Below are positions 11,994 to 24,801 of a DNA stretch of 64,000 bases, one piece after another. Under the pieces are notes generated by a model. The model was not told the DNA's origin. It made no database searches and worked only from the letters and a program-made list of their open reading frames with translations. Positions within the stretch are counted from its first letter, which is position 1. Every line of letters starts with the position of its first letter. The DNA is from Escherichia coli (lineage in GTDB: Bacteria; Pseudomonadota; Gammaproteobacteria; Enterobacterales; Enterobacteriaceae), in NCBI RefSeq assembly GCF_044324785.1, contig NZ_CP172127.1. One strand, 5' to 3'. Made by a program: the position numbers and the translations under genes.

Positions 11994-12989
11994 ATGAAAA
12001 AGAAAAGACCCGTACTTCAGGATGTGGCTGACCGTGTAGGCGTGACCAAAATGACGGTCAGCCGCTTTTTGCGTAACCCGGAGCAGGTTTCCGTCGCTCT
12101 ACGCGGCAAGATTGCCGCCGCTCTTGATGAACTGGGTTATATTCCCAATCGCGCGCCCGATATCCTCTCTAACGCCACCAGCCGGGCGATTGGCGTCCTG
12201 TTACCTTCTCTCACCAACCAGGTTTTCGCGGAAGTATTACGCGGAATCGAAAGCGTCACCGACGCGCACGGTTATCAGACCATGCTGGCCCACTACGGTT
12301 ATAAACCGGAAATGGAGCAAGAACGCCTCGAATCAATGCTCTCATGGAATATCGACGGACTGATCCTCACCGAACGTACCCACACGCCGCGCACCTTAAA
12401 GATGATTGAAGTGGCGGGGATTCCGGTGGTGGAACTGATGGACAGCAAGTCGCCGTGCCTCGATATTGCCGTCGGTTTTGATAACTTTGAAGCGGCACGC
12501 CAGATGACCACCGCCATTATTGCTCGCGGGCATCGCCACATTGCCTATCTCGGCGCACGTCTCGACGAACGTACTATCATCAAACAGAAGGGATACGAAC
12601 AGGCGATGCTGGATGCAGGCCTGGTGCCATATAGCGTGATGGTTGAGCAATCTTCTTCTTACTCTTCCGGTATTGAACTGATTCGCCAGGCGCGGCGGGA
12701 ATATCCGCAGCTGGATGGCGTGTTCTGTACTAATGATGACCTGGCGGTCGGCGCGGCGTTTGAATGCCAGCGTCTGGGGTTGAAAGTTCCTGACGATATG
12801 GCGATTGCCGGTTTCCATGGTCATGACATTGGTCAGGTGATGGAACCACGGTTGGCGAGCGTACTGACGCCGCGTGAGCGGATGGGCAGTATTGGCGCTG
12901 AACGCCTGCTGGCGCGTATTCGTGGCGAATCTGTGACACCGAAAATGTTAGATTTAGGTTTCACCTTGTCACCGGGCGGATCTATTTAA
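11994..12989 (+). CDS. gntR: LacI-family gluconate repressor
   Basis: 331 aa, N-terminal HTH VTKMTVSRFL, periplasmic-binding-fold body. Confidence 0.9.
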   Translation: MKKKRPVLQDVADRVGVTKMTVSRFLRNPEQVSVALRGKIAAALDELGYIPNRAPDILSNATSRAIGVLLPSLTNQVFAEVLRGIESVTDAHGYQTMLAHYGYKPEMEQERLESMLSWNIDGLILTERTHTPRTLKMIEVAGIPVVELMDSKSPCLDIAVGFDNFEAARQMTTAIIARGHRHIAYLGARLDERTIIKQKGYEQAMLDAGLVPYSVMVEQSSSYSSGIELIRQARREYPQLDGVFCTNDDLAVGAAFECQRLGLKVPDDMAIAGFHGHDIGQVMEPRLASVLTPRERMGSIGAERLLARIRGESVTPKMLDLGFTLSPGGSI

Positions 12990-13052
12990 GCCCACAAATT
13001 TGAAGTAGCTCACACTTATACACTTAAGGCACGGATGGATATTGCTTCTGAT

Positions 13053-13070
13053 ATTGTCCGGCCGGACAAT
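13053..13070. promoter_or_regulatory. perfect 18-bp palindrome ATTGTCCGGCCGGACAAT upstream of gntK
   Basis: read directly; abuts the GntR operator. Confidence 0.5.
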
Positions 13071-13098
13071 GTTACCGATAACAGTTACCCGTAACATT
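13069..13098 (+). promoter_or_regulatory. GntR operator(s) in gntKU promoter
   Basis: atgttaccgataacagttacccgtaacat; ATGTTACCCGTAACAT-type palindromic half-sites. Confidence 0.65.
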
Positions 13099-13128
13099 TT
13101 TTATTTCTTGTATTGTGGGGGCACCACT

Positions 13129-13656
13129 TTGAGCACGACTAACCATGATCACCACATTTACGTCTTGATGGGCGTATCGGGCAGCGGCAAATCTGCGGTC
13201 GCCAGTGAAGTGGCGCACCAACTTCATGCCGCGTTTCTTGATGGCGATTTCCTCCATCCACGGCGCAATATCGAAAAAATGGCCTCTGGTGAACCGCTGA
13301 ATGACGACGATCGTAAACCGTGGTTGCAGGCGCTGAACGACGCCGCGTTTGCCATGCAGCGTACCAATAAAGTGTCGCTGATCGTCTGTTCTGCACTGAA
13401 AAAACACTATCGCGACCTGCTGCGTGAAGGTAATCCGAATCTTTCTTTCATCTACCTGAAAGGCGATTTTGATGTGATTGAAAGCCGCCTGAAAGCGCGC
13501 AAAGGCCATTTCTTTAAAACCCAAATGTTGGTGACGCAGTTTGAAACGCTGCAGGAGCCGGGTGCGGACGAAACCGATGTACTGGTGGTGGATATCGATC
13601 AACCGCTGGAAGGTGTTGTGGCAAGCACCATTGAGGTTATTAAAAAAGGCAAATAA
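13129..13656 (+). CDS. gntK: thermoresistant gluconokinase
   Basis: 175 aa from (M)STTNHDHHIYVLMGVSGSGKS; P-loop; the codon at the expected start is TTG; the ORF-track ATG 13042 would run through the operator. Confidence 0.8.
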   Translation: MSTTNHDHHIYVLMGVSGSGKSAVASEVAHQLHAAFLDGDFLHPRRNIEKMASGEPLNDDDRKPWLQALNDAAFAMQRTNKVSLIVCSALKKHYRDLLREGNPNLSFIYLKGDFDVIESRLKARKGHFFKTQMLVTQFETLQEPGADETDVLVVDIDQPLEGVVASTIEVIKKGK

Positions 13657-13659
13657 GTA

Positions 13660-15000
13660 GTGACTACATTAACGCTTGTTTTAACAGCAGTAGGGTCTGT
13701 TTTACTGCTGCTGTTTTTAGTCATGAAGGCGCGTATGCACGCTTTCCTGGCTTTGATGGTGGTGTCCATGGGGGCTGGCCTTTTTTCCGGTATGCCGCTC
13801 GATAAAATCGCAGCGACGATGGAAAAAGGGATGGGAGGCACCCTCGGCTTTCTGGCGGTGGTTGTCGCCCTGGGAGCCATGTTTGGCAAGATCTTACATG
13901 AAACCGGCGCAGTCGATCAGATTGCCGTCAAAATGCTCAAATCCTTCGGTCACAGCCGCGCGCATTATGCCATCGGCCTTGCGGGGCTGGTCTGTGCGCT
14001 GCCGTTGTTCTTTGAAGTGGCGATTGTTCTGCTGATTAGCGTTGCTTTCTCAATGGCGCGCCACACCGGTACGAACCTGGTGAAGCTGGTAATCCCATTA
14101 TTCGCAGGCGTGGCGGCAGCGGCTGCGTTCCTGGTGCCGGGGCCTGCGCCAATGCTGCTGGCATCGCAGATGAACGCCGACTTTGGCTGGATGATCCTGA
14201 TTGGCCTGTGTGCGGCAATTCCGGGAATGATTATTGCCGGGCCGCTGTGGGGTAATTTCATCAGCCGCTACGTGGAGTTGCATATTCCTGACGACATCAG
14301 CGAACCACATCTCGGTGAAGGCAAAATGCCGTCCTTCGGATTCAGCCTGTCGCTGATCCTGTTGCCACTGGTGCTGGTGGGGCTGAAAACCATTGCCGCG
14401 CGCTTTGTGCCGGAAGGCTCTACCGCTTACGAATGGTTCGAGTTTATTGGTCATCCGTTTACCGCGATTCTGGTTGCTTGTCTGGTAGCAATTTATGGCC
14501 TGGCAATGCGTCAGGGTATGCCAAAAGACAAAGTGATGGAAATTTGTGGTCACGCGCTGCAACCGGCGGGGATCATTCTGCTGGTGATTGGTGCAGGCGG
14601 CGTGTTCAAACAGGTGCTGGTTGACTCTGGCGTAGGTCCGGCACTGGGCGAAGCGTTAACCGGCATGGGCCTGCCGATTGCCATCACCTGCTTCGTGCTG
14701 GCAGCTGCAGTGCGCATCATTCAGGGTTCTGCCACCGTTGCCTGTTTAACGGCGGTGGGACTGGTGATGCCGGTTATTGAACAACTGAACTATTCCGGAG
14801 CGCAAATGGCGGCGCTGTCGATTTGTATCGCCGGTGGTTCGATTGTTGTCAGCCACGTTAACGACGCCGGTTTCTGGTTGTTCGGTAAATTTACCGGCGC
14901 GACTGAAGCCGAAACACTGAAAACCTGGACCATGATGGAAACCATCCTCGGCACTGTCGGTGCTATCGTTGGGATGATTGCGTTCCAACTGTTGAGTTAA
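13660..15000 (+). CDS. gntU: low-affinity gluconate:H+ symporter
   Basis: 446 aa GntP-family permease; GTG start 3 bp after gntK stop. Confidence 0.88.
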   Translation: MTTLTLVLTAVGSVLLLLFLVMKARMHAFLALMVVSMGAGLFSGMPLDKIAATMEKGMGGTLGFLAVVVALGAMFGKILHETGAVDQIAVKMLKSFGHSRAHYAIGLAGLVCALPLFFEVAIVLLISVAFSMARHTGTNLVKLVIPLFAGVAAAAAFLVPGPAPMLLASQMNADFGWMILIGLCAAIPGMIIAGPLWGNFISRYVELHIPDDISEPHLGEGKMPSFGFSLSLILLPLVLVGLKTIAARFVPEGSTAYEWFEFIGHPFTAILVACLVAIYGLAMRQGMPKDKVMEICGHALQPAGIILLVIGAGGVFKQVLVDSGVGPALGEALTGMGLPIAITCFVLAAAVRIIQGSATVACLTAVGLVMPVIEQLNYSGAQMAALSICIAGGSIVVSHVNDAGFWLFGKFTGATEAETLKTWTMMETILGTVGAIVGMIAFQLLS

Positions 15001-15012
15001 TTACTGCGACAA

Positions 15013-15038
15013 ATTACTGCGAGCTTGCTCGCAGTAAT
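15013..15038 (+). terminator. gntU terminator hairpin
   Basis: attactgcgagc-tt-gctcgcagtaat palindrome followed by T-rich tract; preceded by a direct copy ttactgcga. Confidence 0.6.
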
Positions 15039-15139
15039 TCATTTCTCTTTTCTCCTGTCTTCATCTTTTTGATCTCTCTCGCAAATTTACCTGCTAATAA
15101 TCCGTTCTAATCACTGCCTAAAGATCGCAGGAGATAAAG

Positions 15140-17236
15140 ATGGAAAAGCACGGAGCTGAATTGCTTTTACAGCGGATGTTAGGAAATACCACCGCTACTT
15201 TCAGGGAAGGGCAATGGGAAGCCATAGATGCAGTGGTTAATCAGCGGCGAAAACTGCTGGTTGTACAGCGCACCGGCTGGGGGAAAAGTGCCGTGTACTT
15301 CATCGCCAGTAAAATCTTCCGAGATCGCGGCGCTGGCCCGACAATTATCATCTCTCCTTTGCTTGCCCTGATGCGTAACCAGGTTGCCGCCGCTGAACGG
15401 TTAGGTATTACGGCTGAAACGTTGAATTCTACAAACAGGGAAGAATGGCAGCGCATTAGCGATAAGTTGCTGCAAGGTGAGGTCGATTGCTTGCTGGTTT
15501 CCCCGGAACGATTGGCAAACCAGGACTTTATCGAAACGGTTTTATATCCTATAGCCGATCGTATTGGCTTGCTTGTGGTCGACGAGGCGCACTGCATCTC
15601 TGATTGGGGCCACGATTTTCGCCCGGATTACCGACGTATATTAGATATTTTGCGCCAACTGCCTGCGAATACCCCTGTTCTGGGTACAACCGCGACAGCG
15701 AATAACCGTGTTGTTGAGGATATCCGTCAGCAATTGGGTGACATTGTGATTCAGCGTGGAACGCTGGCTCGCGAAAGTTTGGCGCTTGATGCCTTAGTCT
15801 TAGGAGAACAGTCATCCCGTCTGGCATGGTTAGCAACGGTTATCCCTCAGTTTTCCAAATCGGGAATTGTTTATACCCTGACGACTCGCGATGCTGAACT
15901 TGTCGCCGAGTGGTTAAGGAAAAATGGTATCAGTGCATTTGCTTACTACAGCGGCGTGACTTGTGAAGGCGCGGAAGATTCTAATACTGCCAGGGAATAT
16001 CTGGAGCAGGCACTGCTGGCAAATAAAATCAAAGTGCTGGTCGCGACGACGGCATTAGGTATGGGGTTTGATAAACCTGATTTAGGTTTCGTCATTCATT
16101 ATCAGATGCCGGGGTCTATTGTCGGTTACTACCAACAGGTGGGGCGTGCCGGTCGTGCTATAGATTCCGCAGTTGGCATATTGCTTTGTGGTGGTGAAGA
16201 CCGCGCTATTCATCAATTCTTCCGTGAAAGCGCCTTTCCTGCGGAGGCGCAAATTCATGAAATACTCAACGTACTTAGCGAGAATGACGGTCTTACCCTA
16301 CGAGGCATTGAACAACGGACGAATCTTCGTTATGGGCAAATAGAAAAAGCACTGAAATTATTGGTAGCGGAAAATCCATCGCCTGTGGTGTATACCGAGA
16401 AATTATGGCGCAGAACTATCGTCAGTTTTTCTCCTGATCATGAACGAATTAACCATTTGATGAATCAGAGAAAAAGTGAGCTGGCAGACGTTGAAAGCTA
16501 TATCACGACCAAGGAGTGCAAAATGCAATTTCTGCGCCGTGCACTCGATGAGCCAAGTGCCGAACGTTGTGGTAAATGTAGCAGTTGTCTTCAGCATCCG
16601 TTATTGTCGCCCGACATTGATAGCGGCTTACTCCATGCGGCAAATTTATTTATTAAACACGCTGACCTGCCGTTAAATCTCAATAAACAGGTGGCAGCTG
16701 GGGCTTTTACGCAATACGGATTTAAAGGGAACTTGCCTGCGGGTTTACAAGGATCTACGGGGCGAATCCTTTCTCGTTGGGGAGATTCCGGGTGGGGAAA
16801 GCAGGTAGCACAGGAGAAAAAAACGGGGCGCTTCAGTGATGAGCTGGTAGAAGCATGTGCGGAAATGGTTCGCCAACGCTGGAATCCGCATCCTGAACCA
16901 ACCTGGGTATGCTGCGTTCCTTCATTAAGGCACCTCGACCTGGTTCCTGATTTTGCCCGGCGACTGGCGGCGAAACTTGGCTTACCTTTTATTGATGCCA
17001 TTGAAAAAGTCGTGGACAATCCACCGCAGAAAATGCAGCAAAACCGTTTTCACCAGTGTCAAAATCTCGACGGGGCGTTTGTGATTACCCCTCCTTTGAT
17101 GCCAGGTCCGGCGTTGCTGGTTGACGATATCGTGGATTCTGCATGGACGCTGACAGTTCTGACAGCACTGTTACGCCAGGCAGGTTGCCCGACGGTTTAT
17201 CCTCTTGCCCTTGCTTCTACCTCGGTAAAAAATTGA
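15140..17236 (+). CDS. RecQ-family DNA helicase fused to a C-terminal ComF-like phosphoribosyltransferase (PRTase) domain
   Basis: 698 aa; FREGQ motif 0, Walker A TGWGKS, DEAHCISDWGHDFRPDY, ATTALGMGFDKPD, QQVGRAGR, Cys cluster CK..CGKCSSC; C-terminal ...NLDGAFVIT...ALLVDDIVDSAWT aligns with ComF/GntX PRTase fold; good SD aggag upstream. Confidence 0.85.
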   Translation: MEKHGAELLLQRMLGNTTATFREGQWEAIDAVVNQRRKLLVVQRTGWGKSAVYFIASKIFRDRGAGPTIIISPLLALMRNQVAAAERLGITAETLNSTNREEWQRISDKLLQGEVDCLLVSPERLANQDFIETVLYPIADRIGLLVVDEAHCISDWGHDFRPDYRRILDILRQLPANTPVLGTTATANNRVVEDIRQQLGDIVIQRGTLARESLALDALVLGEQSSRLAWLATVIPQFSKSGIVYTLTTRDAELVAEWLRKNGISAFAYYSGVTCEGAEDSNTAREYLEQALLANKIKVLVATTALGMGFDKPDLGFVIHYQMPGSIVGYYQQVGRAGRAIDSAVGILLCGGEDRAIHQFFRESAFPAEAQIHEILNVLSENDGLTLRGIEQRTNLRYGQIEKALKLLVAENPSPVVYTEKLWRRTIVSFSPDHERINHLMNQRKSELADVESYITTKECKMQFLRRALDEPSAERCGKCSSCLQHPLLSPDIDSGLLHAANLFIKHADLPLNLNKQVAAGAFTQYGFKGNLPAGLQGSTGRILSRWGDSGWGKQVAQEKKTGRFSDELVEACAEMVRQRWNPHPEPTWVCCVPSLRHLDLVPDFARRLAAKLGLPFIDAIEKVVDNPPQKMQQNRFHQCQNLDGAFVITPPLMPGPALLVDDIVDSAWTLTVLTALLRQAGCPTVYPLALASTSVKN

Positions 17237-18438
17237 TGAATCTTTCAGCCAATGCACAAGCGACTCTCCTGCTAACCAGCGATTTTTCTCGCGCGGCGGC
17301 GAGTGAGTATAAACCTCTTAGTAATAGTGAATGGGGGAAGTTTGCATTATGGCTGAAGCACCAACGTATCAGTCCCGCCGATCTTCTGGTACCGCAACCG
17401 CAAGAGAAACTTACAGGCTGGAGCGATCCGCGTATTTCTCAGGAGCGTATTCTTGGCTTGCTGGCGCGTGGTCATAGTCTGGCGTTGGCGGTAGATAAGT
17501 GGCAACGCGCCGGATTATGGATCTTAACCCGCGGAGATGCCGATTATCCCGTTCGCTTGAAAAACCGATTGCGAACGGATGCTCCTCCCGTTTTATTTGG
17601 CTGCGGGAATAAAGCATTATTGCAAGCGGAAGGTATGGCGATTGTTGGCTCGCGAGATGCTCCGACTGACGATTTGCGCTATACCCAACAACTGGCAGCG
17701 AAACTGGCCCAACAGGGGATTTGCGTTATCTCTGGTGGTGCGCGAGGTATTGATGAATGTGCAATGGCGTCGGCACTGGAGGCCGGGGGAACTGCCGTTG
17801 GCGTATTAGCTGATAGCTTGTTAAAAACGAGCACGTTAGTGAAATGGCGTGAAGGGCTTATAGCAGGCAACCTGGTGTTGATTTCACCGTTTTACCCAGA
17901 GGTACGTTTCACTGTCGGCAATGCGATGGCGCGGAATAAATATATTTATTGCCTTGCTGAAAGCGCAATGGTTGTACGTGCGGGAATGACCGGTGGAACG
18001 ATAACCGGAGCGATGGAGGCGTTAAAACATCAGTGGCTGCCTGTTCTGGTTAAACCAAATCAGGATGTGCAATCAGCCAATTCACGATTAGTAGAAAATG
18101 GGGCGTCATGGAGTGCTGAACAGGCTGAGAATGTGACGATCAGACTGCCAGATGTTCCTGGGCTGATGTATGACAGAGCACTCCGTAACGCTCAACCAGA
18201 ATTGTTTTCGCTGCTCGAAGATGACGCAAATTACGCAGTAATGCCCGCGCATACCCCTGTCGATTTTTATCAACTCTTTGTGGCGGAACTGGCGATCCTT
18301 GCAAAGGAATCGATAAGTATTGAAAGGCTGGCGTCTTGTACTGGTTTAACCATCGAACAAATTAGTGTGTGGCTGAACCGCGCAGAAGAAGAGGGAAGGG
18401 TTATCCGATTGGGCGAAGGTCATTATCAGTTCAGGTAA
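17236..18438 (+). CDS. DprA/Smf-like DNA-processing protein paralogue
   Basis: 400 aa from MNLSANAQ; YPVRLKNRLRTDAPPVLFGCGN, IVGSRDAPTDDLRYTQQLAAKLAQQGICVISGGARGIDECAMASALEAGG Rossmann DprA core, C-terminal winged-helix-like tail; start shares 1 nt with the helicase stop (TGATG). Confidence 0.8.
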   Translation: MNLSANAQATLLLTSDFSRAAASEYKPLSNSEWGKFALWLKHQRISPADLLVPQPQEKLTGWSDPRISQERILGLLARGHSLALAVDKWQRAGLWILTRGDADYPVRLKNRLRTDAPPVLFGCGNKALLQAEGMAIVGSRDAPTDDLRYTQQLAAKLAQQGICVISGGARGIDECAMASALEAGGTAVGVLADSLLKTSTLVKWREGLIAGNLVLISPFYPEVRFTVGNAMARNKYIYCLAESAMVVRAGMTGGTITGAMEALKHQWLPVLVKPNQDVQSANSRLVENGASWSAEQAENVTIRLPDVPGLMYDRALRNAQPELFSLLEDDANYAVMPAHTPVDFYQLFVAELAILAKESISIERLASCTGLTIEQISVWLNRAEEEGRVIRLGEGHYQFR

Positions 18439-18440
18439 TA

Positions 18441-18478
18441 AAACAGGTGCCGCGTCTGGTTGTGTGCAGCACCTGTTT
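18441..18478 (-). terminator. yhgN terminator hairpin
   Basis: aaacaggtgc ... gcacctgttt 10-bp inverted repeat, T-run on minus strand. Confidence 0.55.
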
Positions 18479-18483
18479 GAACC

Positions 18484-19077
18484 TTACCCCTTCATCCACA
18501 TTCGAATCCCGTCGAGGAACATCTGGGTTGCCATCATCACCAGAATCAATCCCATCAGGCGTTCAAGTGCATTCACCCCTTTCTCGCCGAGCAGACGTAA
18601 AAATAGCGAAGACTGTAGCAGGATGACAAAGGTGCCACCCCAGGCCAGCAGCAGAGCAATTACCAGATGTCCCATCTGATTCGGGTACTGATGAGACAAC
18701 AACATCAGCGTGGCGAGAATAGTCGGCCCGGCGACTAACGGAATTGCCAACGGCACGATAAACGGCTCTTCACCTGCCGGAAGCCCGCTGCTATTTCCTG
18801 AAGCACTGGGGAAAATCATCTTAATGGCGATCAGAAACAGAATGATGCCGCCAGAAATGGAGACGGTTTCTGCCCGCAGGCTAAGAAATGCCAGAATTTT
18901 CTCACCCGCAAACAGGAACACCAGCATCACCAGGAGAGCAATAAGCAACTCTCGCACCATGATTGCCCGCCGTCTTTTCGGTTCAGTATGTTTCAGTACG
19001 GACATGAAAATAGGTAGGTTTCCGAGCGGATCCATAATCAGGATCAATAAAACTGCTGCAGAAATGATTTCATTCAT
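18484..19077 (-). CDS. yhgN: MarC-family inner membrane protein
   Basis: 197 aa polytopic ORF, conserved position beside asd. Confidence 0.85.
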   Translation of the reverse strand: MNEIISAAVLLILIMDPLGNLPIFMSVLKHTEPKRRRAIMVRELLIALLVMLVFLFAGEKILAFLSLRAETVSISGGIILFLIAIKMIFPSASGNSSGLPAGEEPFIVPLAIPLVAGPTILATLMLLSHQYPNQMGHLVIALLLAWGGTFVILLQSSLFLRLLGEKGVNALERLMGLILVMMATQMFLDGIRMWMKG

Positions 19078-19268
19078 AACTCAAATTCCCTGATAATTGC
19101 CGCGGACTTTCTGCGTGCTAACAAAGCAGGATAAGTCGCATTACTGATGGCTTCGCTATCATTGATTAATTTCACTTGCGACTTTGGCTGCTTTTTGTAT
19201 GGTGAAAGATGTGCCAAGAGGAGACCGGCACATTTATACAGCACACATCTTTGCAGGAAAAAACGCTT

Positions 19269-20372
19269 ATGAAAAATGTTGGTTTTATCGGCTGGCGCGG
19301 TATGGTCGGCTCCGTTCTCATGCAACGCATGGTTGAAGAGCGCGACTTCGACGCCATTCGCCCTGTCTTCTTTTCTACTTCACAGCTTGGTCAGGCTGCG
19401 CCGTCTTTTGGCGGAACCACTGGCACACTTCAGGATGCCTTTGATCTGGAGGCGCTAAAGGCCCTCGATATCATTGTGACCTGTCAGGGCGGCGATTATA
19501 CCAACGAAATCTATCCAAAGCTTCGTGAAAGCGGATGGCAAGGTTACTGGATTGACGCAGCATCGTCTCTGCGCATGAAAGATGACGCCATCATCATTCT
19601 TGACCCCGTCAATCAGGACGTCATTACCGACGGATTAAATAATGGCATCAGGACTTTTGTTGGCGGTAACTGTACCGTAAGCCTGATGTTGATGTCGTTG
19701 GGTGGTTTATTCGCCAACGATCTTGTTGATTGGGTGTCCGTTGCAACCTACCAGGCCGCTTCCGGCGGTGGTGCGCGACATATGCGTGAGTTATTAACCC
19801 AGATGGGCCATCTGTATGGCCATGTGGCAGATGAACTCGCGACCCCGTCCTCTGCTATTCTCGATATCGAACGCAAAGTCACAACCTTAACCCGTAGCGG
19901 TGAGCTGCCGGTGGATAACTTTGGCGTGCCGCTGGCGGGTAGCCTGATTCCGTGGATCGACAAACAGCTCGATAACGGTCAGAGCCGCGAAGAGTGGAAA
20001 GGGCAGGCGGAAACCAACAAGATCCTCAACACATCTTCCGTAATTCCGGTAGATGGTTTATGTGTGCGTGTCGGGGCATTGCGCTGCCATAGCCAGGCAT
20101 TCACTATTAAATTGAAAAAAGATGTGTCTATTCCGACCGTGGAAGAACTGCTGGCTGCGCACAATCCGTGGGCGAAAGTCGTTCCGAACGATCGGGAAAT
20201 CACTATGCGTGAGCTAACCCCAGCTGCCGTTACCGGCACGCTGACCACGCCGGTAGGCCGTCTGCGTAAGCTGAATATGGGACCGGAGTTCCTGTCAGCC
20301 TTTACCGTGGGCGACCAGCTGCTGTGGGGGGCCGCGGAGCCGCTACGTCGGATGCTTCGTCAACTGGCGTAA
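19269..20372 (+). CDS. asd: aspartate-semialdehyde dehydrogenase
   Basis: 367 aa from [17 protein letters not shown]; upstream ATG 19209 is an extension. Confidence 0.92.
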
Positions 20373-20644
20373 TCTTTATTCATTAAATCTGGGGCGCGAT
20401 GCCGCCCCTGTTAGTGCGTAATACAGGAGTAAGCGCAGATGTTTCATGATTTACCGGGAGTTAAATAGAGCATTGGCTATTCTTTAAGGGTGGCTGAATA
20501 CATGAGTATTCACAGCCTTACCTGAAGTGAGGACGACGCAGAGAGGATGCACAGAGTGCTGCGCCGTTCAGGTCAAAAAAATGTCACAACCAGAAGTCAA
20601 AAATCCAGTTGGATGGGGTGACACAATAAAACAGGAAGACAAGC

Positions 20645-22831
20645 ATGTCCGATCGTATCGATAGAGACGTGATTAACGCGCTAATTGCAGGCCATTTTGC
20701 GGATCCTTTTTCCGTACTGGGGATGCATAAAACCACCGCGGGACTGGAAGTCCGTGCCCTTTTACCCGACGCTACCGATGTGTGGGTGATTGAACCGAAA
20801 ACCGGGCGCAAACTCGCAAAACTGGAGTGTCTCGACTCCCGTGGATTCTTTAGCGGTGTCATTCCGCGACGTAAGAATTTTTTCCGCTATCAGTTGGCTG
20901 TTGTCTGGCATGGTCAGCAAAACCTGATAGATGATCCTTACCGTTTTGGTCCGCTAATCCAGGAAATGGATGCCTGGCTATTATCTGAAGGTACTCACCT
21001 GCGCCCGTATGAAACCTTAGGCGCGCATGCAGATACTATGGATGGCGTCACAGGTACGCGTTTTTCTGTCTGGGCTCCAAACGCCCGTCGGGTCTCGGTG
21101 GTTGGGCAATTCAACTACTGGGACGGTCGCCGTCATCCGATGCGCCTGCGTAAAGAGAGCGGCATCTGGGAACTGTTTATCCCTGGGGCGCATAACGGTC
21201 AGCTCTATAAATATGAGATGATTGATGCCAATGGCAACTTGCGTCTGAAGTCCGACCCTTATGCCTTCGAAGCGCAAATGCGCCCGGAAACCGCGTCTCT
21301 TATTTGCGGGCTGCCGGAAAAGGTTGTGCAGACTGAAGAGCGCAAAAAAGCGAATCAGTTTGATGCGCCAATCTCTATTTATGAAGTTCACCTGGGCTCC
21401 TGGCGTCGCCACACCGACAACAATTTCTGGTTAAGCTACCGCGAGCTGGCCGATCAACTGGTGCCTTATGCTAAATGGATGGGCTTTACCCACCTCGAAC
21501 TGCTGCCCATTAACGAGCATCCGTTCGATGGCAGTTGGGGTTATCAGCCAACCGGCCTGTATGCACCGACCCGCCGTTTTGGTACCCGCGACGACTTCCG
21601 TTATTTCATTGATGCCGCACACGCAGCTGGTCTGAACGTGATTCTCGACTGGGTGCCAGGCCACTTCCCGACCGATGACTTTGCGCTTGCCAAATTTGAT
21701 GGCACGAACTTGTATGAACACAGCGATCCGCGCGAAGGCTATCATCAGGACTGGAATACGCTGATCTACAACTATGGTCGCCGTGAAGTCAGTAACTTCC
21801 TTGTCGGTAACGCGCTTTACTGGATCGAACGTTTTGGTATTGATGCGCTGCGCGTCGATGCGGTGGCGTCAATGATTTATCGTGACTACAGCCGTAAAGA
21901 GGGGGAGTGGATCCCGAACGAATTTGGCGGGCGCGAGAATCTTGAAGCGATTGAATTCTTGCGTAATACCAACCGTATTCTTGGTGAGCAGGTTTCCGGT
22001 GCGGTGACAATGGCGGAGGAGTCTACCGATTTCCCTGGCGTTTCTCGTCCGCAGGACATGGGCGGTCTGGGCTTCTGGTACAAGTGGAACCTAGGCTGGA
22101 TGCATGACACCCTGGACTACATGAAGCTCGACCCGGTTTATCGTCAGTATCATCACGATAAACTGACCTTCGGGATGCTCTACAACTACACTGAAAACTT
22201 CGTCCTGCCGTTGTCGCATGATGAAGTGGTCCACGGTAAAAAATCGATTCTCGACCGGATGCCGGGCGACGCATGGCAGAAATTCGCTAACCTGCGCGCC
22301 TACTACGGCTGGATGTGGGCATTCCCGGGCAAGAAACTGCTGTTCATGGGGAACGAATTTGCCCAGGGCCGCGAGTGGAACCATGACGCCAGCCTCGACT
22401 GGCATCTGTTGGAAGGCGGCGATAACTGGCACCACGGTGTCCAGCGTCTGGTGCGCGATCTGAACCTCACCTACCGCCACCATAAAGCGATGCATGAACT
22501 GGATTTTGACCCGTACGGTTTTGAATGGCTGGTGGTGGATGACAAAGAACGCTCGGTGCTGATCTTTGTGCGTCGCGATAAAGAGGGTAACGAAATCATC
22601 GTTGCCAGTAACTTTACTCCGGTGCCGCGTCATGATTATCGCTTCGGCATTAACCAGCCGGGCAAATGGCGTGAAATCCTCAATACCGATTCCATGCACT
22701 ATCACGGCAGTAATGTCGGCAATGGCGGCACGGTACACAGCGATGAGATTGCCAGCCACGGTCGTCAGCATTCATTAAGCCTGACACTACCACCGCTGGC
22801 CACTATCTGGCTGGTTCGGGAGGCAGAATGA
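20645..22831 (+). CDS. glgB: 1,4-alpha-glucan branching enzyme
   Basis: 728 aa, GH13 motifs. Confidence 0.93.
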
Positions 22832-24801
22832 CACAACTCGCCATTGGCAAACCCGCACCCCTCGGCGCGCATTACGACGGTCAGGGCGTCAACTTCACAC
22901 TTTTCTCCGCTCATGCCGAGCGGGTAGAACTGTGTGTCTTTGACGCCAATGGCCAGGAACATCGCTATGACTTGCCAGGGCACAGTGGCGACATTTGGCA
23001 CGGTTATCTGCCGGATGCGCGCCCGGGTTTGCGTTATGGTTATCGCGTTCATGGCCCCTGGCAACCCGCCGAGGGGCATCGCTTTAACCCGGCGAAGTTG
23101 TTGATTGATCCTTGCGCGCGGCAAATTGACGGGGAATTTAAAGATAACCCGCTGCTGCACGCCGGTCATAATGAACCTGACTATCGCGACAACGCCGCCA
23201 TTGCGCCGAAATGCGTAGTGGTGGTTGATCACTATGACTGGGAGGATGATGCTCCGCCGCGCACGCCGTGGGGCAGTACCATCATTTATGAAGCCCATGT
23301 CAAAGGATTAACGTACCTGCACCCGGAGATCCCGGTCGAGATCCGTGGCACTTATAAAGCCCTGGGGCATCCGGTGATGATCAACTATTTGAAACAGTTG
23401 GGCATTACCGCGCTGGAACTGCTGCCGGTGGCGCAGTTTGCCAGCGAACCACGCCTGCAACGTATGGGTCTAAGTAACTACTGGGGTTATAACCCGGTGG
23501 CGATGTTTGCGCTGCATCCGGCGTATGCCTGCTCCCCAGAAACGGCGCTTGATGAGTTTCGCGATGCAATCAAAGCACTGCATAAAGCGGGTATCGAAGT
23601 CATTCTTGATATCGTGCTCAACCATAGTGCGGAACTGGACCTCGACGGCCCGTTATTCTCTCTGCGTGGGATCGACAACCGTAGCTATTATTGGATAAGA
23701 GAAGACGGCGATTATCACAACTGGACCGGTTGTGGCAACACGCTCAATTTGAGTCATCCGGCGGTGGTGGATTATGCCAGCGCCTGCCTGCGTTATTGGG
23801 TAGAAACCTGCCACGTCGATGGTTTCCGCTTTGATCTGGCGGCAGTCATGGGCCGTACGCCAGAGTTTCGTCAGGATGCGCCGTTGTTTACCGCTATCCA
23901 GAACTGCCCGGTGCTCTCGCAGGTGAAGTTAATTGCTGAACCGTGGGATATTGCTCCTGGTGGTTATCAGGTGGGAAATTTCCCACCGCTGTTTGCCGAG
24001 TGGAACGATCATTTCCGCGATGCTGCCCGTCGTTTCTGGCTTCATTATGATTTGCCTCTGGGGGCGTTTGCCGGGCGTTTTGCTGCCTCCAGCGATGTTT
24101 TTAAACGTAATGGTCGTCTGCCGAGTGCCGCGATTAATCTCGTCACCGCGCATGACGGTTTTACGCTTCGCGACTGCGTTTGCTTCAACCATAAACATAA
24201 TGAAGCAAACGGAGAAGAAAATCGCGACGGGACCAACAACAATTACAGTAACAATCATGGTAAAGAAGGGTTAGGCGGTACTCTTGACCTGGTTGAACGG
24301 CGTCGCGACAGCATTCACGCCCTGTTAACAACGTTGTTGCTCTCCCAGGGTACGCCGATGTTACTGGCCGGTGACGAACATGGTCACAGCCAGCATGGCA
24401 ATAACAATGCCTACTGTCAGGATAACCAATTAACCTGGTTGGACTGGTCGCAGGCAAGCAGTGGTTTAACCGCATTTACCGCCGCGTTAATCCATCTGCG
24501 CAAGCGCATTCCCGCTTTGGTGGAGAATCGCTGGTGGGAAGAAGGCGACGGCAATGTCCGTTGGCTAAATCGATATGCTCAACCTTTAAGCACGGATGAG
24601 TGGCAAAACGGGCCGAAACAGCTGCAAATTCTGCTCTCGGATCGCTTTTTGATCGCAATTAACGCCACGCTTGAGGTAACAGAGATTGTTTTACCTGCTG
24701 GGGAGTGGCACGCCATTCCCCCATTCGCTGGAGAGGATAACCCAGTGATTACGGCTGTCTGGCAGGGACCTGCACACGGATTGTGTGTGTTCCAGAGATG
24801 A
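22828..24801 (+). CDS. glgX: glycogen debranching enzyme
   Basis: 657 aa, ATGA overlap with glgB. Confidence 0.93.

Follow-up and report, generated by a model that had tools for sequence, protein, structure and literature searches.

The window, a stretch of 64,000 nt of Escherichia coli DNA, carries the gntR-gntK-gntU locus, with the three genes in this order as ORFs at 11994-12989, 13129-13656 and 13660-15000; the same names are given to them by RefSeq in two strains. According to the ORF list and RefSeq, gntR (11994-12989) encodes a LacI-type repressor and gntU (13660..15000, + strand), the downstream gene of the operon, encodes a transporter and begins with GTG. Between them, the gntK CDS (13129..13656, + strand) encodes a gluconokinase of 175 aa plus the stop codon, assigned by its identity to PDB 1KNQ and by its match to NCBIfam NF008583. 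The GTG of gntU at 13660 is located only 3 nt past the gntK stop (TAAGTAGTG, window 13654-13662). The translation of gntU may be coupled to that of gntK. Together with the TTG of gntK described below, this means that both gntKU genes have non-ATG starts.

Residues 1-175 of GntK are identical to chain A of PDB 1KNQ, the crystallised gluconate kinase, whose deposited sequence is that of the crystallised construct and not the native N-terminus. The protein scores 373.6 bits against the NF008583 gluconokinase equivalog (cutoff 265), with residues 1-174 placed on profile positions 1-174 of 177, and 241.7 bits against the GntK/IdnK subfamily TIGR01313 (cutoff 113.75). The P-loop (GxxGxGKS) is present as GVSGSGKS at residues 15-22, directly after the first beta-strand. 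Since it is 100% identical to the E. coli enzyme that was crystallised, and since PMC12523793 uses it as a gluconate kinase, GntK would carry out the ATP-dependent phosphorylation of D-gluconate.

The TIGR01313 fold and the P-loop are shared with IdnK (gntV; NCBIfam NF007336), the second E. coli gluconokinase of the GntK/IdnK type. Residues 10-165 of GntK align to the TIGR01313 profile. Against the IdnK equivalog the score of 184 bits is below the cutoff of 304 and thus the protein is not IdnK. GntK also differs in carrying approximately 9-10 extra N-terminal residues (STTNHDHH...) before the core that is common to the two enzymes.

The beginning of this N-terminus is determined by the start codon. 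At 13129-13131 the sequence reads TTG, in frame and directly 5′ of AGC ACG ACT AAC CAT GAT CAC CAC, which is translated to STTNHDHH, and the frame then remains open to the TAA ending at 13656. This triplet (13129..13131, + strand) was assigned as the initiation codon of gntK from the sequence, the RefSeq CDS start, an alignment of 80 species and the published UUG start. Direct reading of the three bases bears out the first-pass annotation, which had placed a TTG immediately before STTNHDHH. The same annotation had reported in-frame ATGs at 13042 and 13069. The latter was found as described (13069-13071), whereas 13042-13044 is a TTG, and the ORF list accordingly gives TTG as the start codon of its 13042..13656 entry. 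Two more in-frame TTGs, at 13054 and 13108, had been overlooked. The in-frame candidates 5′ of 13129 are therefore TTG 13108, ATG 13069, TTG 13054 and TTG 13042, and the first in-frame stop is located at −123.

A TTG triplet alone carries no weight against chance; the signals that rise above chance are the Shine-Dalgarno (SD) pairing upstream of it and its cross-species signature. Comparison with the reference annotation of gntK, which had been proposed as a check, places the RefSeq start at the base of 13129. This applies to the PGAP annotation of the nearest strain, N3 (99.9% identical), as well as to a K-12-type O16:H48 strain, and in both the product is the 175-aa protein WP_000108330.1.

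The SD core GGGGG (13117..13121, + strand) is located 7 nt before the TTG and was determined by its duplex with the 3′ end of the 16S rRNA and by its conservation. The energy of this duplex is −8.4 kcal/mol, a value equal to the median across 82 loci, and an energy of −8 kcal/mol is reached at 1.8% of the positions sampled across the window. The G at −10 is invariant in the 82 loci and lies in a conserved G-rich block from −13 to −8. Among all in-frame candidates of gntK, the best SD at functional spacing belongs to the TTG at 13129.

Besides the G-rich block, every one of the 82 loci has a C at −2 (13127). Its neighbors vary, with entropies of 1.50, 1.13 and 0.85 bits at −3, −4 and −1, respectively. 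Folds of single sequences often pair the G-run of the SD with the C-rich spacer, at energies between −4 and −9 kcal/mol. The register of this pairing is not the same from genus to genus, however, and in 34 diverse sequences of the start region RNAalifold found no consensus pair. A hairpin of this kind was thus rejected as the reason for the invariant C, for want of a consensus. We also considered a small ORF upstream whose TGA stop overlaps the start codon (T-TGA); it was rejected by inspection, as its sole start in frame is a GTG within the SD.

The species-representative genome scan, performed in one run, provided 80 orthologous loci of Enterobacteriaceae, each with an alignment that begins at residue 1. 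They belong to Escherichia, Salmonella, Citrobacter, Klebsiella, Raoultella, Enterobacter, Kosakonia, Kluyvera, Leclercia, Lelliottia, Buttiauxella and other genera. The codon aligned to the gntK start is TTG in 77 of the 80 species and ATG in three (Yokenella, Trabulsiella and Buttiauxella), while other leucine codons (CTN, TTA) occur at this place in none of the 80. An in-frame stop is found within 48 nt 5′ of the aligned codon in 56/80 species. In 36/80 there is no ATG, GTG or TTG between the nearest upstream in-frame stop and the aligned codon, which makes this codon the sole possible start in these species.

The mode of conservation also changes at this point. In detail, the mean column entropy of codons 2-40 is 0.10, 0.05 and 0.83 bits at codon positions 1, 2 and 3, respectively, and the mean from −45 to −14 is 1.79 bits; the three-base periodicity of conservation starts exactly at the codon at 13129. 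The only conserved features near the start on its upstream side are the G-rich block and the C at −2, and indels whose length is not a multiple of three occur there between genera. Of the 5,424 complete E. coli genomes, 5,387 carry an identical sequence over the 61 nt from −22 to +39.

An Enterobacteriaceae-type gntK, 92% identical and with the same operator and TTG start, was also met in a record titled "Chryseobacterium sp. 18061" (CACSKA010000004.1), which is probably a mislabelled or contaminated assembly.

The intergenic region between gntR and gntK contains several conserved blocks, defined on an alignment of 17 genera. The block most distant from gntK is TTTGAAGTAGCTCACA (12999..13014, + strand), a putative CRP-like site which is conserved across genera and fits the pattern TGTGA-N6-TCACA. 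It is followed by TTGCTT (13042..13047, + strand), a possible −35 hexamer on the grounds of conservation, which contains the TTG at 13042 and in which the T, T, G, C and the T of the fifth position are invariant across genera. GACAAT (13065..13070, + strand), located 17 nt downstream of TTGCTT, is a possible −10 hexamer according to its conservation and spacing, and its last two bases are the A and T of the ATG at 13069. The bases 13065-13096 are invariant across the 17 genera, and this stretch holds GACAAT overlapping ATGTTACCGATAACAGTTACCCGTAACA. The conserved ATGTTACCGATAACAGTTACCCGTAACAT (13069..13097, + strand), with the in-frame ATG at 13069, is a putative tandem GntR operator; against the background of the gnt regulon, we take ATGTTACCGATAACAGTTACCCGTAACAT / ATGTTACCGATAACAGTTACCCGTAACA to be this operator.

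A sigma-70 consensus scan of 12900-13250 called no promoter on the + strand, so that the −35/−10 assignment was made by conservation and spacing alone. If these hexamers are the promoter, we infer that transcription starts near 13077, which would leave the ATG at 13069 off the transcript of the gntK promoter, and that the CRP-like TTTGAAGTAGCTCACA is centered approximately 71 nt upstream of this start. Literature text searches returned no transcription-start or N-terminal sequencing data for gntK.

The ATG of the operator has no fixed relation to the gene. Relative to gntK it lies in frame 0, 1 and 2 in 24, 17 and 40 loci, respectively (n=81). Only 14 of the 81 have it in an open frame with gntK, and between 45 and 114 nt separate it from the start of the gene. 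This variation in frame and distance indicates that it is conserved as DNA and not as a codon, independently of where the promoter is placed. The intergenic alignment and the frame counts thus agree with the earlier view that the upstream ATG lies within the operator and that the extension it would add is not conserved.

A difference between the window and K-12 explains why a longer N-terminus came into question. Pairwise alignment with the K-12-type strain shows T6-A-T3 at 13097..13106 (+ strand) instead of the T5-AA-T2 of K-12, that is, a 1-bp T insertion and an A>T substitution approximately 25-30 nt upstream of the start. As a result, the in-frame TAA which K-12 has at −27 is lost, the operator ATG is moved into the frame of gntK, and the nearest upstream in-frame stop recedes from −27 in the K-12-type strain to −123 in the window. 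In K-12, the sole upstream in-frame candidate is an SD-less TTG at −21. The doubt over the N-terminus therefore arises from a strain-specific opening of the upstream frame. The gntK of K-12 (WP_000108330.1; 1KNQ) shares with the window the protein, the TTG start, the SD, the 61-nt initiation region and the gntR-gntK-gntU order.

The 721 nt around the gntK start (12980-13700) match 5,424 of the 5,426 complete E. coli genomes. The gnt allele of the window is an unusual one, with at least 99% identity over these 721 nt in only 2 of the 5,424. K-12-type and other typical strains are approximately 97.6% identical to the window over the same length, with the GntK protein still identical to that of K-12.

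The window also differs from K-12 downstream of gntU, where a PsyrTA pair replaces the direct gntU-yhgN junction. The two genes, absent from K-12 and placed between gntU and yhgN at 15140-18438 (+ strand), encode a RecQ-like helicase of 698 aa and a DprA/SLOG-like protein. They match the PADLOC profiles PsyrT (E=0, 1068 bits) and PsyrA (8e-201), respectively, which together form the PsyrTA defence/toxin-antitoxin pair. At least 80% of window 15001-24000 is covered at one place in 1,649 of the 5,426 complete E. coli genomes. The PsyrA-like ORF, as called, begins at 17143 and has its first 94 nt (17143-17236, + strand) in common with the helicase gene. Its profile match begins only at residue 32, and for this reason the true start of the gene is probably located about 90 nt further downstream, near the stop of the helicase.

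Translation from the ATG at 13069 in this strain would produce a GntK of 195 aa with a 20-residue extension (MLPITVTRNIFYFLYCGGTT-L-STTN...), in which the TTG is read as an internal leucine. As a start codon, ATG is by nature stronger than TTG, and the frame from 13069 to 13129 is open both in the window and in strain N3, but it owes this only to the strain-specific insertion and A>T substitution, and PGAP keeps the TTG start in N3. Moreover, the SD pairing available to the ATG (−3.2 kcal/mol, 1-nt spacer) is not usable, and the codon lies within the invariant −10-like/operator block, probably upstream of the inferred transcription start. In 67 of the 81 loci the same ATG either lies in another frame or is blocked, and the sequence from the operator to the SD shows indels between genera and no conservation of the coding type. 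Initiation at this codon is thus considered highly improbable, although a minor extended isoform of GntK could be made from gntR read-through transcripts in this strain and in the 14 of 80 species in which the upstream ATG is open. The longer N-terminus, which the first-pass annotation had left as its second alternative, is consequently disfavored, since all evidence points to the TTG.

Even lower is the probability, practically negligible, of a start at one of the other upstream TTGs, that is, 13108 (at −21, adding MYCGGTT-L), 13054 or 13042. In the window each of the three shares an open frame with gntK, and the one at −21 does so in K-12-type strains too, but their SD energies are +0.6, −3.1 and −5.7 kcal/mol, respectively, at unsuitable spacing (a spacer of 2 nt in the case of 13042). 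The TTG at −21 is missing in most genera, entropy is high from −21 to −14 with no sign of codon periodicity, and the TTG at 13042 belongs to the −35-like TTGCTT, which is conserved; besides, the 36 species mentioned above lack any upstream alternative. A start within the gene, at the in-frame ATG of codon 14 (Met14, VLMGVSGSGKS), would turn the first 13 codons into 5′ UTR. Codons 2-13 show strict conservation of amino acids with third-position variation in the 82 loci and are thus translated, and the NF008583 profile spans the protein from residue 1 to 174. A start at Met14 would also cut the residues of the first beta-strand just before the P-loop, and the conserved SD is positioned for 13129 and not for codon 14. 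We regard this internal start as next to impossible.

Translation of E. coli gntK, the gluconokinase gene of the GntI system in the gntR-gntK-gntU locus, almost certainly has its native start at the TTG of 13129-13131. The first alternative of the first-pass annotation, that TTG is the native start, is thereby supported by RefSeq, the orthologs, the coding-type conservation, the SD and a published UUG>AUG swap.

This start is already known from the reference annotation and the literature, and TTG is a rare but well-known alternative start in bacteria. The natural gntK of MG1655 has a UUG start, as stated in a metabolic-engineering paper of 2025 (PMC12523793), in which its replacement by AUG decreased the residual gluconate from 0.42 g/L to below 0.05 g/L and increased consumption. 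This result fits a UUG that is functional and limiting, and shows that the codon does limit flux. The E. coli reference record that PMC4909307 discusses had only 81 annotated UUG starts; the paper names ftsH and shows several UUG starts to work in lacZ fusions. Similarly to these other UUG-initiated genes (PMC4909307), gntK combines a minor non-AUG start, the initiator tRNA and an SD at normal spacing. It differs from them in nothing mechanistic and stands out only by the conservation of its TTG in 77/80 species. A literature search for an N-terminal protein sequence of GntK or an initiation-site ribosome-profiling signal found none. The gene is absent from the supplements of the TetRP study (tetracycline-inhibited ribosome profiling) and of TRAINSPOTTER (an N-terminomics study of 2026), probably because it is repressed without gluconate.

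In the mechanism proposed here, the GGGGG 7 nt upstream would position the 30S subunit at the TTG, and the initiator tRNA would read UUG as formyl-methionine, giving the 175-residue M-STTNHDHH... protein. The upstream in-frame "starts" would be DNA regulatory elements, with the TTG at 13042 belonging to the −35-like hexamer and the ATG at 13069 to the −10-like/operator block. The weak UUG start probably throttles the translation of gntK, either by design or by tolerance.

The first base of the start codon has an entropy of 0.23 bits, compared with 0.83 bits at synonymous positions. This conservation of TTG suggests, short of proof, selection for a weak start. Whether the UUG is actively kept by selection as a translational throttle, and not merely tolerated, is a further step: the presence of TTG in nearly all species with synonymous sites near saturation, along with the invariant C at −2, led us to this reading, which we put forward tentatively and with more doubt than confidence.

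As far as annotation is concerned, gene callers and readers should take the TTG for gntK and not extend the gene to an upstream ATG that was brought into frame by a 1-bp insertion. The locus is a clean teaching example of an operator and promoter hexamers being taken for start codons. Beyond correct annotation, the significance of the TTG start is small. In engineering, it is of use that the native UUG limits the expression of GntK and that the swap to AUG raises it, as published. If the throttle is true, it could limit the build-up of 6-phosphogluconate or set the GntK:GntU ratio in the operon.
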